NCBI RefSeq assembly: GCF_963676685.1
Contig: NC_092347.1
Span: 90,644,001 to 90,708,000 of the forward strand
DNA: 64,000 nt
Source of the DNA: Mytilus edulis
Taxonomy: Eukaryota
Direction: 5' to 3'
The position numbers were made by a program, and so were the translations under genes. Within the stretch, counting starts at the first letter, position 1; each line of letters starts with the position of its first letter. Shown here in pieces: positions 1,385 through 30,944 of this stretch. A model generated the notes under the pieces. That model did not search any database. It saw only the letters and a program-made list of their open reading frames with translations, and was not told where the DNA came from.

Positions 1385-3093
1385 CTAATATGTTCCTGTT
1401 TTACCTAAAATGACGAAAACAATATTGAAATAATAAGGTGATTGCATTACATTATTGAAGGAAGAGCAGTTCATTCTCCAAAGATTAAGTTAAATGTACA
1501 TTCCGTTAAATGCTCAGTTTTATGTTTATTTCGGCTGTTCATACCTTTTCTAATTTTTCCGTACTTCTCCTTTTTGTCCCTTTAGTATTAAATGTTTGAT
1601 TCAGAACATCGGTATCAAAGTTATTTAAATCACTTTCAAATAAGACAGGAAAAAAAAGGTTTATTGGAAACGACTATTTCAAAATTTATTTAAATTCTTC
1701 TAATCTTTCAAATCAATGTTCATTTTTTATATATTACGTTGATGATATAGTTTTAGTGTAAAAATATATTGCTAATGTCAAAATAGTGTAAAGTACAAGC
1801 AATTAATGTAATGTTATCACAAAATATTGGACCTTTTATTACCATTTCAAATAATTTTGTAATTATTCATTATGTGGCATACTCTGTTTTACGATGTACT
1901 CCATTCATATTCATGAATTGGGATTTAATTTATATCAGTCATTTTTTATGAATGCAATTTTGTATGAATCTCCCTCTCAGGTAACAATTTGACAATTGTA
2001 ATTATATCATATGTATAAAATTTCGTATTCAAATAAAGGCAACAGTAGTATACCGCTGTTCAAAACTCATAAATCCAGGGACAAAAAACAAAATCGGGGT
2101 AACAAACTAAAACCGAGGGAAACGCATTAAATATAAGAGGAGAACAACGACATAACACCGAAACGTAACACACACAGAAACGGACCAAGCATCAGACAAA
2201 ACACCACGAGAATAACAAATATAACATGAAAACCAAATACATGAATTTGGGATAGACAAGTACCGTGCCACGTCTGATCTCAATATCTCAAAAATAAGAG
2301 AAAACACAAACGACTCAACGTTAAAATGCAACACACACAGAAACGAACAATAATATAACAATTGTTATTTTTATTTGGAGATTTACGATTATTATTTTTA
2401 TTTGGAGATTTACGATTACTTACCTCCAAATTTACCGAAACTGCTTAATCCATTTAGACCTTGTCTTCCATTTATGAGTCCACCGTTGAAGCCAAAACCT
2501 TTTATACCACCAATACCATATGATCCAAAGCCATTTAAACCACCATATGATCCAAAACCATTCAAACCACCAATACCATAAGATCCAAAACCATTCAAAC
2601 CACCAATACCATAAGATCCATAATTGTTAAGACCGGATGCCCCGTTGATACCATACGCCCCATAACCATTTAAATTGTTATTTCCAACAATTCCTCGACT
2701 GTATCCATAACCCATGGAAGCTCCGATTCCTTTACCGTGAACACCGTGATTTCCATTTCCACTGAATCCATTCAAACCCCTTCCGTTCATAAACCCGTTT
2801 CCAGGATATCCACTTTGTACACTATATCCATTGTATCCAGCATATCCGCCAATGTTTAATGGTGAACCGTAACCAAAAGCGTTGTTGGAATATCCCCCAT
2901 ATCCATAACCTAATCTGCCATAAATCGGATATCCGAATCCACCATTTCCTTGAAATCCAATACTACCAATATTACCTGGTCCAAATGGATTTCCGTATGT
3001 TTTCAGGTTATATTTGGGACTATATCCTTTTTCTCCGGCCTCCGATGCCACAATTCCAACAAGGGCTAAACAAATCAATACTATTGGTAGCAT
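1385..3093 (-). CDS. Secreted Gly/Tyr/Asn-rich structural protein, type A, copy A1 (229 aa; coding exons 3093-2424 and 1404-1385; C-terminus KFGGKTGTY)
   Basis: Acceptor tttcAG|aaccactaaccATG; signal peptide MLPIVLICLALVGIVAS; GGLNGFGSY(GI) repeats. Donor GGAG|GTAAGT at 2424/2423, acceptor ttttAG|GTAAAACAGGAACATATTAG. Spliced length 690 nt, in frame. Same structure in all paralogues. Confidence 0.9.
2031..2360. mobile_element. Interspersed repeat (AAATAAAGGCAACAGTAGTATACCG family), truncated insertion in intron 2 of A1
   Basis: Absent from intron 2 of A4 and A6. A second, inverted and shorter copy lies at ~36118-36314 and is absent from the paralogous site at ~22820. Confidence 0.75.
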
Positions 3094-3328
3094 GGTTAGT
3101 GGTTCTGAAACGATATGCATTTCTGATCAACTAATGATAATGTATTTGAAATTTCAAAATATTGGCCAATCAGGATGACAGAGTAAGTTGAAAATATATA
3201 AGAAGGTAAAACTTATCCTGGCGTCAAAAGTTCATGAAACTTATTTAAAAAGAAACAAATGCGACATATACGGGTACCAAAAATGAAAAATCATTATGTT
3301 AAAAACCAACACGAAACATACATTTTAC

Positions 3329-3634: not shown

Positions 3635-4107
3635 TCATTATTGAAGTATTTATACACATTCACTGGTATTCAAATTGCTTATTTCTGGTTATTTCATTAG
3701 TGTCATTTATAACTATATTTGTTATTTATCTATTTAAGATTAAAACACTTTTAAACATCGTTGACCTATATATTTCACAACATTCGGAAAGGTCATCGTT
3801 TTATTGTTTTGTTATAAAAGTTGAATGGTGATGTATTTTTTTTTATTAAAGAACATGTATGGTAATAAGATGACATAAATATATCAAGTGTATTTCATTT
3901 ATAAGTACATTCATTGAAATAACAAGTTTGCGCATCTTTGGTTCATTCTAAATTAAAAACTGACAAGTATTATATAACCTCATTGGTTGATATCTTTGGC
4001 GGAAGTACATGTGATACATCCTCATTCTTTCAATATCCAAGCTGTGGGAAGGTCGTGCTTCACGTGTTGTCGGCAAAGTAACTATATTCTTTAACTTTTA
4101 CTTTCAT

Positions 4108-4470
4108 TTGCCTTGGTGGCAATATAGCCTTGGTGGCTTTAATACCTTGGTGGTCATTTATATATGCCTTGGTGGCAAAAGATCTAGGTGGTCATTTATA
4201 TATGCCTTGGTGGCAATAGACCTAGGTGGTCATTTTTATATGCCTTTGTGGCAATAGACCTAGGTGGTCATTTTTATAATTTTTTACATTTGCCTTGATG
4301 GCAATATTAAATTAAAAATACTACCCTTTGGGGCGTCAAGACCTTGGTGGTCATTTATATATGCCTTGACGGCTTCTTGATAGAACTAGATAGTAATGTT
4401 TGACCTTGGTGGCAAAATGTTTTGGGATTTGGACCTTGGCCGGTAGTTATTATCAACCCAGGTGGTCAGA
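4108..4470. repeat. Array of about 13 CC(T/A)TGGTGG-type motifs, partly in 38-bp dimeric units
   Basis: GCCTTGGTGGCAATA and GACCTAGGTGGTCATTTATATAT alternate through the region. Confidence 0.85.
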
Positions 4471-6752
4471 TATTTGTTATGCCGTAAACGCAGGACAAAG
4501 TGCTATCGCTATATAAAATATATGTGGAAGTGGGGGTTCTGGCCAATTTGGGAACCTGTAATTGAAAGGAGAATAATAAATTGTTTATAGCGTAAAAAGT
4601 TTCTTTTGTTTCTTTTGAGTGTTGTGCACTTTTCATTGATAATTACATCGTACATACTGATAAAAATGCTTTTTAAAGACTTTGTTAGAAAAGAAAAGAA
4701 ATATTGAGAAAGTGAAATAATTTAGTGTGACATGTCACTTGGTATTATTGTTAGAATGAAATTCATAACAGTGTAGCTATGGCCATTCATTGACTGGGGA
4801 AAATTAGGTGAACGTTCGTCTGTAATGCCCACTACTCACGACGTACTTATCATATACATTTAAACTGTGAGGTCACCAAAGGTTCTTAACGCCTAAATAA
4901 AATGATTAAAAATACTAATCAGGAATTACCTTTGTAATTTGAAAATAAATAAAAATGGCCTTCAACACGGAGTCTTGGCTCACACCGAACAGCAAGCTAT
5001 AAAGGTTGAATACTTAAAATTCTTTACTTGATTTTTTGTTATGGTTTGACCATCAATTTTCCTAATATGATATCGCACGTTCTTTCAGATTTTTTTTTTT
5101 TACTTAATTGGCTTTAAAAGTTACAATGCATGATGTCGTCTGGTTATGTAGTTCATATGTGTTTTTCGTTTCTCGTTGGTTTTCCCGTTTGAATGGTTTT
5201 ACACTAGTAGTTTTGGGGCCCTCTATAACTTGCTGTTCGGTGTGAGCCAAGGCTCCGTGTTGCAGGTCGTACCTTGACCTATAATGGTTTACTTCTATGA
5301 ATTATTTCTTGGGAGGAGAGTTGTCTCGTTGGCACTCATACCACATCTTCCTATATCTATCTATATCTATACATTTGTTTTTCAACAAAAGAATACATCA
5401 CAAGAATATAAGTTTTATAAGAAACGTGAGAAATTGTGTTGGACTTGAAGATAAGGCAAAGTGACAAATATCAGAAAGAATGAATCGTTTTATGGTATTA
5501 AACAAAGAAATCAAATGATTTTTTAATTATCCAGAACTCTTCACAAACAAAACCCACATGTATACGCATTGAATAAATAGTAGGCCATTCTAAAATGATC
5601 ACACCGTAGAAGTAGTTGTGCTCTTAATCAATGAGATATTTTGTGAATTAACCCCATCAACTTAATAGTTTTTTTAACAATGGATAAACCTATTTTTTTT
5701 TATTATTATTAAATAATATCATCTCTGAACATTATTATTCTTATAAATGACACGGTTGTATGTGATGATTATAATAAATATTTAAAACAAATTCCTTTCA
5801 AGCTTTGTAAAAAGAAAGTTTCATTTTATGTATCGGAATGTGTAACAAGTGAATATTTCAATCCCCACTGGAAGGCCTCTGACAGACTGGGTGAGCATAA
5901 AATCATAGCCGTTGACAAACAAGTTACAACCTACAAACGTTTTACTGTCGACCACACTGTTATGCAATTAATTATATTTACCGGAGTGATGTGTATTGAA
6001 TTATGAGGTGTCTTCGTCGAGGTCAGCGTTCAGCGGTCTGTTTGATTGTTCATAAAATTGAATAGAATGAATGGTAAAAATACGGATATATTAACACTAA
6101 ATTATGTATGTCTGTGTTGAGAAAGGCAAAAGAAGTCAATATGGCACGGTATTAAAAAAAAAACAACAAAAAAAAAATAATAATAATTGATGGAAGCAGC
6201 TTTATGGTCAAATGAACCTATTAAGTAATTCTAATAACTTGTCCGTAATTTCATGTGGATGTATATATAATTGCATTGATGTGTTAAAATGTGTCACATA
6301 AATCTGTTGTCTTGGCAGATTAAATAATGATTGTACCATTTTTTGTTTTGTTTAATAAATATATATGTTGAATGATTTTGTATACTAGTACAAATGTATA
6401 CTGAAATTTTATTTATGGTTAAATTTTTTAATTTAAATTTCTTTGTCTACTGTTCGAGGGACACTGATTCCCTAGTGGTTTTTCCACGTGGATTGTAGGC
6501 AAAGGGATTTTTCCTTTTCGAAGTGTGACTTCTGCTGTCTTAAGTACAAATAAACAGCTTGTTATTGGTTAATATATTTTCAGCAGAGTTGTGAAGAATC
6601 AAGTGGAAATACAATTGTCAATGTTCCTGATTAGGAAGTAAAATGTGTGTTTGATTCAACAGCAGTAAAGAAAGAGACAAGCCAGCATAGGTTACACTTG
6701 GAGGTGAAGTTCCTTTGCTTACAAGCTTTCCATATGCCAAAGATGTTATTAA

Positions 6753-7346
6753 GGTTCATCATAAGGAATTGAAAAATATGGCCGTGCTTACATGTTGCCT
6801 CCAAAATTACTATGAGTACAGACAAACTGGTACATTCAGGAAAGTTTTAAGACATGGCAGGAACTAGATATATAAAAGTTATATGAAGTCTACGTTTCAG
6901 AAAATTAAAAACTTAACTGGATTTTGATGTTAATTTTTTTCCAGTCTGCAGAAGATAGCAAAATAAACAAACACCCGAGTTTCATTTGATACGGTCCACT
7001 CAGTTACACAGTTTAAACCTGTTAAATCACCTATTGTTTACAGGTGTCTATTGTCCATCTATTGTCCATTTAAATCAATACTACTCACAACATTGATTAT
7101 ATGAGAGGAGCTTCTCAATCGTTTTCACTACTTAGTTAATTTTTGCACCTTCTGCAGGAACGAAAAAAAATGGATAGCAAAATCTAGAAAAGTTTATAAT
7201 TTTCTGTAACATAAAATGCATTTAGAATTTATATATCTAGTTCCTGCCATCCCTTAAAACTGTTGCAGGTGTATAGGTTAGTCTGTACTCAGAGTAAAAT
7301 TTGGGGTGTAAATACGGCCATTTTAGCCAAAAGGTTATGATGAACC
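6753..7346. mobile_element. Fold-back MITE with TTAA target duplication (Kolobok-like ends), nested in the 4.7-kb element
   Basis: TTAA|GGTTCATCATAA...TTATGATGAACC|TTAA. Long imperfect inverted arms, e.g. ATGGCAGGAACTAGATATATAAA / TTTATATATCTAGTTCCTGCCAT. Confidence 0.75.
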
Positions 7347-8907
7347 TTAAAAATGACAATGTTCATTTTTATATGATTTCATTGCCTTAACTCGAACTTT
7401 AAAAGTCTATGTGGTCAAATTCATGAGAATTTATTGGATTATGAAGTATTTATACAGAACTGTGTACATGTATCTTGAAATTTTTAGAAGTGTTTTAAAG
7501 TAATTAAGGAATAATATTTAATAAAAGTGTTAAAAGATATTTTTGTTTTGAGTATTGGGAATACTATTACTTCGGAGAAAGCCTTGCTAGTGGTGTAATT
7601 TGAGATTGGCCTGCAAATAAGCTGTATGGATTATAGAGTTTTCTATGCCCATAACTTAACATGAACTGGATGCAAGATTATATCAATCACTGAGGATATG
7701 TGTATAACCTCATTGGTTGATATCTTTGGCGGAAGTACATGTGATACATCCTCATTCTTTCAATATCCAAGTGGTGGTTGGTTTAAGGGCTATGTTTTGG
7801 TCAGGCAATACTTATTGCTTATTGCCTGTTTGGGTTGATGAGAAGTTCCCCCCTCTCCCACCCATAAGTACCAAAATGTGGATTTGTTTTTTATATTCAT
7901 ATTTTAATATTGGTATTACATGTATGCATTTTGGGTTGATGAGTACGAGAAAACATTAAAAAAAAACCATAAGCATTACCATGGGATCATGTTGATGGAA
8001 CACTCCTTCGCTTTATCGATTTTTAAGGGAAAGGTCAAATAGGTCAAATAGTAAGATCACAAAAATACCGAACTTAGAGGAAAATCAATTCGGCAAGTCC
8101 ATAATCACATGGCAAAATCAAATAAAAACGCATCAAAAACGAATGGACAAGAACTGTCATATTCCTGACTTAGTACAGGCATTTTCAATTGTAAAAAATG
8201 GTGGATTAAACCTGGTTTTATAGCGCTAACCATTTCACTTTGATGACAGTCTCATCAAATTCCGTTATATTTACATTGATGCGTAAACTAAACAGACACA
8301 ATAAATAAAAGTCAAAATATGGGTACATCAATCATCATCGTATAACAATCAAGTGTATTGGTATGTCTGTGCTTACTTTTTCATTACAATGGTAAAAATA
8401 AGATTATATATCTCGGATGACAATAATGTTGATTATAATGCTTAATTTTATGAGCTCCAGAGTAGTTGTATAAGAAACAACTGCGCACTTTATCCAGTGA
8501 GCTCTTGTGCATTGCATTGTGCATAGTAGTCCACATTTTGGTTTCTGAAACGTATAGATATTATCTTGTATTCGGTTCTTTCCTCTAGAGTTTTCTATGC
8601 CCATAACTTAACATGAACTGCAAGATTATATCAATCACTGAGAATATGTGTAGATCAACCAAATAACATTATACAAATGTACCAATATTTTACCAACAGT
8701 ATTATTTTTTTTTTATTCTTTTAATCTTGGCTTACTTATTTGTTACTAAATATTTTTTGCATTTATCATATAACGCTCAGTTGATTTATAAACTGTTGTT
8801 TTTCTTATGGTTCGAAAAAGTATTTCAAAAAGAGTAATTCTTGCGTGATGTTGTAGGCCAATATATATATAGTGGAAAGTCGAAACTTAACATCGAAAAT
8901 GATACGG

Positions 8908-29400: not shown

Positions 29401-30944
29401 TTGATTATATCAGATTTTGAAACGCTTTGTTCCAATCACAATCACATGTCAAATTTAAGGATCATGCTAACTTAACATTCATCTTAAGAAAATCCTCTTT
29501 CTACTTCATTTCCATAAAGGAAATATAATAAAATTAGAGAAGCACAGTTGGTTCATATGGGAATGACCACTGTCTACTGGAAAAAAGGTATACAATGACA
29601 CAAAGAAACAGATCAATCATCTCGATGATGTGAGTTTCAGAGATTCTTTTGTGTAAATGAGAGTTTATCAACACGTTATTTGTCCTCTTTGTTATTTATC
29701 TGAAGGGTTAGCATAGATACTAACACGAAACTTTTTTTTTTTTTATTAAACAAAGAATTGAACAATAATGTGCGAATAACGAATTATCTACATTATGCCT
29801 TGATATAATTATATGATTCCGTAGTTGTGTATGAAATTGTTTTAATCAGTTCCAGTTGTTTATGTTTTTAAACGTTTATTACATTTGATAGATTTCCAAG
29901 AATATTCATCAACTCTGAAGACAAACTTGACAACATTTGCATTCTGTACCGCTCAATATTATGATGAAGATTAAAGGTAATCGAACGATTTATCCTATGT
30001 TAAAACTTTAATGTCAATCTTGCTCTCAACATGATATGTGTAACATTGTGTCAGCAAAATTCATGTACGCTATTTACTATAGTATAGTTCTTAGATACAC
30101 CTATGAGAAAGTTAAGCTGAATGGGTACACCAAGATATGATTGTAAATGCAGAATGACCTTTATCAATCATATAGATAGGGCTTTTCAGTGATATAACCA
30201 TTAGCATGAATAAGCATGCTACATGTGTTTGATTTGTTGCATATAATTTTTTTAAGGTATATAGTGCGGACAAAAATTCTGATCTGATATACATAATGTT
30301 TTGAAAAATGTATTATTCATTTTAGGAAGACGGAAAAACAAATTGAAACAACACGTTAAAAAATTCATATATCCGAAGCCCTTATCATTTTCGATGTTAA
30401 GTTTAAATTTTCCAATATATATTGGCCTACAACATCACTCAAGAATTACTCTTTTTCGAAATAACCATAAGAAAATCAACGGAGCGTTATATAATAAATG
30501 CAAAAAATATTTAGTAACAAATAAGTAAGCCAAGATTAAAAGAATAAAAAAAAATCTAATACTGTTGGTAAAATATTGGTACATTTGCATAATGTTATTT
30601 GGTTGATCTATAATACTTGTCAGTTTTTAATTTAGAAGGAACTAAGGATGTGCAAACTTGTTATTTCAATGAATTTACTAATAAATGAAATACACCTGAT
30701 ATATTTATGTCATCTTATTACCATACATGTTCTTTAATAAAAATACATCACCATTCAACTTTTATAACAAAACAATAAAAAGATGACCATTACGAAAGTT
30801 GTAAAATATATCAGTCAACGATGTTTAAAAGTGTTTTAATCTTAAATAGATAAATAACAAATACAGTTATAAATGAGACTAATGAAATGACCAGAAATAA
30901 GCAATTTGAATACCAGTGAATGTGTACAAATACTTCAATTATGA

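Follow-up and report, generated by a model that had tools for sequence, protein, structure and literature searches.

The window analysed here, the whole 64-kb stretch of Mytilus edulis DNA, contains an insertion in which a long and a short interior are bounded by the same short ends in the order A1..B1A2..B2, which raises the question of what kind of element this is and how it was inserted. A first-pass annotation had read it as a candidate tyrosine-recombinase (YR) system, either a non-autonomous split-repeat element or integron-style cassettes stacked at one site. It is almost certainly a gene-less derivative of PAT-like YR retrotransposons, with the following features.

3975..8652, + strand: the complete element, 4,678 bp long in this copy against a family median of 2,788 bp, without target-site duplication
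3975..4041, + strand: repeat A1; the att-like site's right arm forms its start
4122..4278, + strand: 38-bp tandem repeat, 4.1 copies, belonging to the element
4754..5966, no strand: later insertion nested in the element, with short inverted repeats at its termini and its limits placed to ~10 bp; not in other copies
6322..6759, + strand: degraded trace of a coding ancestor's gag-pol boundary, at 63% DNA identity to family Au1
6753..7346, no strand: 594-bp MITE, a later nested insertion that has a TTAA duplication and terminal inverted repeats
7363..7633, + strand: remnant of the region downstream of the coding ancestor's YR gene (63% over 7363-7769)
7634..7704, + strand: repeat B1, its final part being the left arm (7680-7698) and the core
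7699..7704, + strand: asymmetric 6-bp core TGTGTA, retained at the right end of inserted copies
7705..7771, + strand: repeat A2, with the right arm at 7705-7723
8048..8349, no strand: captured fragment of a common repeat, found in the subfamily L016, L019, L027 and missing from most copies
8586..8652, + strand: repeat B2, the right end of the element, closing with the core

The shared ends noted by the annotation are real: A1 and A2 are identical over 67 bp, and B1 and B2 agree at 93%, with a 4-bp deletion and one substitution in B2. The proposed span, 3975..8650, is correct at its start, whereas the element stops at 8652. At the two empty paralogous sites, near window positions 30,610 and 45,070, both flanks are joined directly as had been claimed. 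These joins are clean, with nothing duplicated, and the proposed target TA and its duplication have to be dropped; the TAs are the first and last bases of the element itself, and left flanks end in TA in only 9/56 copies. Target duplication is likewise absent at the 8 insertions whose joined flanks match an empty site. The interior given as 3.6 kb describes the window copy, which has been enlarged by two later nested insertions, and not the family, in which the long interior is typically ~2.1 kb. No ORF longer than 97 aa lies inside the window element, in keeping with the earlier failure to see a recombinase frame there.

The ends are not confined to this locus, as a local rearrangement would have had it. 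Exact A 28-mers occur 144 times in the genome and exact B 19-mers 152 times (reversed-pattern controls, 0), and the junction pattern has 105 matches (reversed control, 0), 8 of the 100 listed belonging to a coding relative. The window element belongs to a young family without genes that numbers roughly ninety copies; they are near-identical, dispersed in the genome and fixed in structure. The A and B repeats co-occur in a long-then-short order in all 56 complete copies, 3 of them assigned by length and the others by context, and permuted copies number 0/56. Among the matches listed, none of the 69 clusters is an array. A1..B1A2..B2 is therefore a single element and not a cassette array; the stacked-cassette reading fails on constant interiors, fixed order and the lack of arrays. 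Six solo A..B units were found, three long and three short, with standard sequence beside each repeat, which fits the inter-repeat recombination described in Ngaro elements (PMC8547959). Long copies, with 5.7-6.0 kb between A repeats, were considered as autonomous forms, and the proposed check for YR and RT frames in them returned only unrelated nested elements or frames. Mapping of contigs and reads to the window copy, which was swamped by nested repeats, gave no evidence on polymorphism or circles, the one empty-site contig being perhaps a paralog. The gene-less element was seen neither as a circle nor as cDNA or a transcript. Its unique parts have almost no reads in RNA run X21, and RNA coverage of Au1 is low.

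In terms of coding capacity, relatives of the family were recovered by a pattern search with a relaxed core. Au1 comprises 8 copies of 7.5 kb that are ~99% identical, with repeats 75-79% identical to A/B, and the B repeat of Au2 is 82-84% identical to that of the gene-less family. Intact 7.5-kb relatives encode a Gag knuckle, RT/RNase H/methylase and an ALOG-YR protein, and in several young copies the pol and YR frames are open. Domain scores support RVT_1 (E 3e-10) and ALOG (E 3e-18); ALOG (PF04852) lies N-terminal to the YR and is above cut-off in 4/4 YRs scanned, and Pfam Phage_integrase scores these YRs under its curated cut-off (E 0.047 to 1e-4). A CCHC zinc knuckle is present in the Gag of Au1 and Au2. 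Residues 605-760 of Au1 show a SAM-dependent methyltransferase fold (Z 11.2, rmsd 3.1 over 137 residues), for which neither Pfam nor a PDB sequence profile gave a match and the single-sequence fold had a pLDDT of 34. Au6 has a GDSL-hydrolase-like tail behind the methylase region, and YR identity between families is 31-60%.

By repeat layout and domain content, the coding relatives are PAT-like members of the ALOG class. Their homologous A/B repeats and YR gene support the proposal that the split-repeat element is non-autonomous and that a tyrosine recombinase moves it. Of the PAT/TOC1/Ngaro elements named in the annotation, the family sides with PAT rather than Ngaro, since the relatives carry a methylase domain, its fold being present in Au1. 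A DIRS1-like assignment, which calls for inverted terminal repeats with an ICR and a trinucleotide common to ends and target, was rejected as the repeats are direct, not inverted, and the targets share no core. A DDE transposon, which the annotation had named as a refuting case, was rejected as target duplication is absent and the full-length relatives encode RT and YR instead. The relatives are not close: interior remnants of the gene-less element are no more than 62-63% identical to Au1 and Au2, and the core is TGTGTA in young gene-less copies versus TGGTCA and TGGGTA in Au1 and Au2. An exact coding partner was not found by YR-protein search, in which none of 119 candidates was closer than Au1/Au2, and no A/B similarity lies within 1.5 kb of the 30 best PF00589 loci.

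The internal B1A2 junction has the form claimed for it, with 19-bp arms at 7680-7698 and 7705-7723 that match at 16/19 by inspection around the core TGTGTA. Scored over 18 nt, the arms match at 15/18 with a 6-bp spacer and at no more than 7/18 with every other spacer from 0 to 12; in the window, ~30 of 63,741 positions score at least 13/18, a count that excludes 59 perfect scores ascribed to the window's N run. In 6 families scanned at spacers 0-12, the best arm match is always at spacer 6 (13-15/18), and in a seventh the arms match at 16/16 at that spacer. The reading of the junction as an att site is supported by this geometry in all seven families examined, the gene-less family and six protein-coding relatives. 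Between the gene-less family and Au1, three arm pairs are altered on both sides, and three arm mismatches are retained across the gene-less family, Au1 and Au2. As single-stranded DNA the 44-nt junction folds with a z of -4.3 (0/200 shuffles). In the available excerpts of the literature on DIRS-order elements, we found no description of a 6-bp core with inverted arms, of one-sided core retention or of targets that resemble the arms and not the core.

The target sites carry a counterpart of this geometry. C is enriched at +4 (54/91, p 6e-20) and found at +5 in 31/91, and G is enriched at -10 (31/78, p 6e-8) and found at -11 in 25/78, these being mirror positions about a 6-bp spacer. Across the target core, positions -6 to -2 show no enrichment (p > 0.05) and -1 a weak one (p 0.013). 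The targets mimic the arms, not the core. The donor core, allowing at most one mismatch, is present at 90/91 right ends and at 0/70 left ends, 2 of 72 left-end candidates having been removed as internal junctions. Core polarity and targets together agree better with exchange of one strand than with the homologous-core model in the literature.

Sequence variants common to both repeats of one copy were seen 14 times against 0.9 expected. Of these shared variants, 4 fall in A (56 pairs; shuffle mean 0.31) and 10 in B (77 pairs; shuffle mean 0.60), values reached in 0/2000 shuffles in each case. They include A position 1 and one core base; a single change common to a whole subfamily accounts for 3 of the 14. 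Rebuilding of the ends on the internal junction would be expected to give such sharing, which can also arise by gene conversion between neighbouring repeats.

Taken as a whole, the locus is very probably explained by a young, gene-less PAT-derived element that is likely copied by way of RNA and uses the enzymes of a coding relative for its insertion. In the proposed cycle, a transcript without the outer ends would be reverse transcribed, and both outer ends would be templated by the internal B1A2 junction. ALOG-YR would then bind both inverted arms at the rebuilt end junction, together with two degenerate arm-like target half-sites, both pairs being spaced by 6 bp. The minus (first cDNA) strand alone would be exchanged, at the border of core and arm A, so that core homology would not be needed; with that strand then copied by replication or repair, the 6 bp of the target would stay at the left and the donor core at the right. 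We lean towards this one-strand exchange. The general form, in which ALOG-class PAT elements use a Xer-like att site and insert first-strand cDNA by single strand exchange into degenerate targets without core homology, we put at even chances. The core polarity would equally be given by two-strand exchange with strand-biased repair or by joining of a linear intermediate.

The published DIRS-order model is a double-stranded circle resolved by two-strand exchange (PMC7192593, PMC3266345), here with repair of the mismatched core always favouring the minus strand and with the internal junction masked in some way. This route seems rather unlikely. Arms about a 6-bp core would suit a duplex site, and the target weakly matches the donor at -1, +1 and +2, but a duplex circle holds two identical junctions, yet no copy is permuted; the route also predicts mixed cores, which the left ends lack, and the targets have no common core sequence at -6 to -2.

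The arms could instead be a hairpin signal for RT template switching or end-joining and not recombinase binding sites, which we regard as improbable. The single-stranded folding of the junction and two-sided arm changes that preserve pairing agree with a hairpin, whereas the retained arm mismatches do not; the genomic targets, which are double-stranded, resemble the inner arm bases at the identical 6-bp spacing, and this points to protein recognition. The two roles could be compatible. A unit of Crypton or integron type, which a YR would excise and re-integrate as DNA only and whose A..B cassettes would stack head to tail, would account for the solo units and the att-like look of the junction. 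It is nonetheless a very remote prospect, as the solos fit inter-repeat recombination, the listed clusters hold no arrays, interiors are constant, repeats co-vary within copies and the relatives encode RT.

The site of the mussel element resembles bacterial, DNA-only systems. XerCD/dif, CTX phage and integron attC have two arms about a 6-bp centre, their replication-resolved one-strand exchange tolerates non-matching cores, and single-stranded substrates fold, rebuilding both binding sites; the mussel junction, in contrast, would fold arm-on-arm. The likeness is an analogy, not membership.

Among retroelements, echinoderm-form Pat1 (PMC4157794) is alike in its A1-B1-A2-B2 split repeats with the internal repeats downstream of the YR and, compared with the coding relatives, in its methylase domain and Gag zinc knuckle; unlike Pat1, the window's family codes for nothing, and available excerpts of that report describe neither an arms-and-6-bp-core junction nor one-sided core retention. 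ALOG DIRS1-type retroposons (Iyer and Aravind 2012, PMC3537659) share the N-terminal ALOG on the YR, RT/RNase H, an inactive-type methylase, the Gag knuckle and marine invertebrate hosts. According to the excerpted text of that paper, animal copies are degraded and the only intact one is in Ectocarpus, whereas here the pol and YR frames of several young copies are open, the split repeats have been located and a derivative without genes has multiplied. TOC1 of Chlamydomonas reinhardtii, the non-autonomous version of TOC3 (PMC5613634), is also a gene-less member of the YR retrotransposon group relying on a coding relative, but its host is an alga and that of the mussel family an animal. Ngaro (PMC8547959, PMC9210276) shares the repeat layout and solo AB units and lacks the methylase of the Mytilus coding relatives; the repeats here are very short, at 67-71 bp, where those of a Xenopus Ngaro measure 236 and 152 bp (PMC9210276). 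The mussel element is a new member of a kind already known; what deserves attention is the att-like site and the core polarity.

YR retrotransposon integration is still a model; excerpts of PMC7192593 (2020) state that DIRS-1 YR specificity had not been experimentally investigated and that the cDNA is mainly linear and single-stranded. If the proposed cycle is true, one-strand cDNA integration would replace the double-stranded-circle, homologous-core model for ALOG-class PAT elements, and eukaryotes would have a YR integrase that works independently of homology and on a defined donor site of ~40 bp. The ~170 element ends read out the reaction, giving cut position, surviving strand and target requirements, and with the site geometry in seven families and intact YR genes the chemistry is testable on oligonucleotide substrates.

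In terms of repeat structure, the repeats of the window copy lie where the first-pass annotation had placed them: A1 (3975–4041) and A2 (7705–7771) are identical, B1 (7634–7704) and B2 (8586–8652) are 93% alike, two paralogous loci of the window lack the insertion and have its flanks joined directly, and the internal B1A2 junction carries 19-bp arms on either side of TGTGTA. With 18-nt arms and spacers of 0–12 scanned, 15/18 positions match at spacer 6 and at most 7/18 at any other. The element ends at 8652 rather than 8650, and it is not TA-bounded as had been proposed: the terminal TAs are the element's own bases, and just 9 of the 56 copies have a left flank ending in TA. Of 30 insertions tried, eight had joined flanks that match an empty site, and none of these eight shows a target duplication. 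The window copy is 97–98% identical to a copy elsewhere (L074) and is longer than usual because it contains two further sequences:

~4754–5966, nested insertion
6753–7346, nested TTAA-flanked MITE

Exact-pattern searches of the 1.37-Gb genome gave 144 matches to A, 152 to B, and 105 to the junction (places listed for the first 100 of each); reversed-pattern controls gave none. The suggestion that A and B bound cassettes with varied interiors is not supported, as the interiors on both sides were common to all 29 other loci in a DNA search with the junction. Nor are there cassette arrays among the 69 clusters on seven contigs (C1–C7; 28 complete A–junction–B patterns), in which clusters of repeated junctions (JJ and JBJB) are whole copies side by side. 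The alternative proposal, that A..BA..B is one unit, is borne out by a long-then-short order in 56/56 complete copies of the fetched loci (called by sequence context in 53 and by length in 3), with medians of 2,128 bp (long) and 648 bp (short). Six solo A..B units (three long, three short) have standard sequence adjoining their repeats; solo units are reported for Ngaro too (PMC8547959, section 11). The window element is very probably a real, young, non-autonomous PAT-like retrotransposon of a class already known, and the order has known gene-less members in TOC1 (PMC5613634) and SIRE (PMC6681497). The family is also present in contigs of three sequencing runs (X1, X2, X4) labelled as two species (A, B). 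Two long copies hold nested RT-type open frames that look Penelope-like by eye (L081:2802–4223, 473 aa; L082:4922–7360, 812 aa).

A junction pattern search with the core left free revealed a coding relative, Au1, to which all of the at least eight TGGTCA-core junctions among the matches listed belong. Au1 is 7.5 kb long, with copies ~99% identical, the same repeat layout as the gene-less family, and repeats 75–79% identical to A and B. Mytilus edulis entries match the pol protein of this coding relative at 97–100%. Its gag, pol (760 aa), and tyrosine recombinase (YR; 411 aa) frames are open in several copies; Gag has a CCHC knuckle, RVT_1 and ALOG score above the Pfam cut-off and Phage_integrase below it, and the proteins contain putative catalytic motifs. 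The confidently predicted structure of pol (pLDDT 87) resembles reverse transcriptases and RNase H, and its modeled residues 605–760 resemble SAM-dependent methyltransferases (best Z 11.2, rmsd 3.1, 137 residues). Methylase and GDSL/SGNH extras usually serve to separate PAT from Ngaro. In another family, Au6 (L191–L193, L197), part of the pol frame can be aligned with the methylase region, after which the frame runs on into a GDSL/SGNH-hydrolase-like tail (E 9e-4, below cut-off). Under the PMC4157794 criteria, Au1, with its internal repeat after the YR, is Pat1-like rather than Ngaro, and its ALOG-YR assigns it to the class described in PMC3537659. The gene-less family retains decayed pieces of the gag–pol boundary and the post-YR region (62–63% identity) and is therefore derived by deletion from a sister lineage. 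Five further families came from a search with the YR, among which no exact helper was recognised; the nearest, Au2, has a B repeat 82–84% identical and the core of older gene-less copies. Most such copies (L139–L145, L149) carry this core, TGGGTA; the young burst carries TGTGTA. RNA coverage of Au1 is low: three runs gave 46–795 reads, some of which come from diverged copies. Four RNA reads (two starts, run X22) skip 897 bases at L132:7126–8022; on the element's strand the skipped segment has GT..AG ends, so that, upstream of gag, genomic copies of Au1 seem to have retained a spliceosomal intron.

With the junction set in each family from direct repeats alone, all 6 families scanned over spacers 0–12 have their best arm match when the spacer is exactly 6 (13–15/18, vs at most 9/18 elsewhere), and in the seventh family the arms match at 16/16 at spacer 6. 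YR identity between families is 31–60%, cores vary, and the arms of distant families are alike at inner bases only. Between the gene-less family and Au1, three arm pairs are altered on both sides with complementarity kept; three arm mismatches are retained across these two and Au2. Judged from sequence, the junction is a conserved att-like site common to the seven families.

Variants are shared much more often within a copy than between copies: those common to both repeats of one copy number 4 in 56 pairs for A (shuffle mean 0.31) and 10 in 77 pairs for B (shuffle mean 0.60), counts reached by 0/2000 shuffles for either. The shared changes include A's first base and one core base, and three of them are one subfamily change. 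All four repeats were scored in 51 copies; in 13 of these the paired repeats are identical across 136 bp. Such sharing may also come from gene conversion; the co-variation indicates that the outer ends are rebuilt from the internal junction.

The insertion scars were scored on 78 left and 91 right flanks (p values uncorrected, ~32 positions tested). The donor base is enriched in targets at +4 (54/91, p 6e-20) and −10 (31/78, p 6e-8), and also at +5, +2, +1, and −11. Purine at −10 (65/78) mirrors pyrimidine at +4 (78/91), a symmetry spanning a 6-bp spacer directly left of the insertion point. Within that spacer, the 78 left flanks show no donor-core match at −6 to −2 and a weak enrichment at −1. 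Because arm-like bases are enriched and −6 to −2 are unmatched, targets resemble a degenerate att site in which the core sequence is free. Au6 targets (right flanks of L191 and L197) resemble Au6's own arm A just past the right end.

A YR cuts each strand at a different edge of the core. If both strands are exchanged between cores that differ, heteroduplexes result, and these should segregate in both directions; two identical junctions would be present on a duplex circle. Right ends retain the donor core within one mismatch in 90/91 cases; it is found on 0/70 true left ends, defined by downstream sequence only. The standing model, as set out in PMC3266345 and PMC7192593, has a double-stranded circle inserted at an identical short target sequence. 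However, neither the left-end donor cores expected of two-strand exchange nor the permuted copies expected of a duplex circle were seen. Exchange of the minus strand only, that is, of the first cDNA strand, would give the observed products. According to PMC7192593, DIRS-1 cDNA is mainly linear and single-stranded, and the specificity of its YR had not been tested. The question of integration becomes testable through the att-like site that the seven families share and through the strict polarity of the core. Arms round a 6-bp core and one-sided core retention were not described in the passages covered by a literature search, including PMC13465315, PMC9210276, PMC12477816, and bioRxiv 2022.05.23.493040; prior notice of either is possible.

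At least seven clustered paralogs in the window encode a Gly/Tyr/Asn-rich protein that looks secreted and for which resemblance suggests a possible shell-matrix role:

2416–3126, minus strand, Gly/Tyr/Asn-rich gene
near 19.2–20.0, 24.9–25.7, 31.4–32.2, 37.8–38.8, 47.0–47.7, and 54.7–55.6 kb, paralogs

The element lies upstream of one of these genes, ~850 bp from its coding start.
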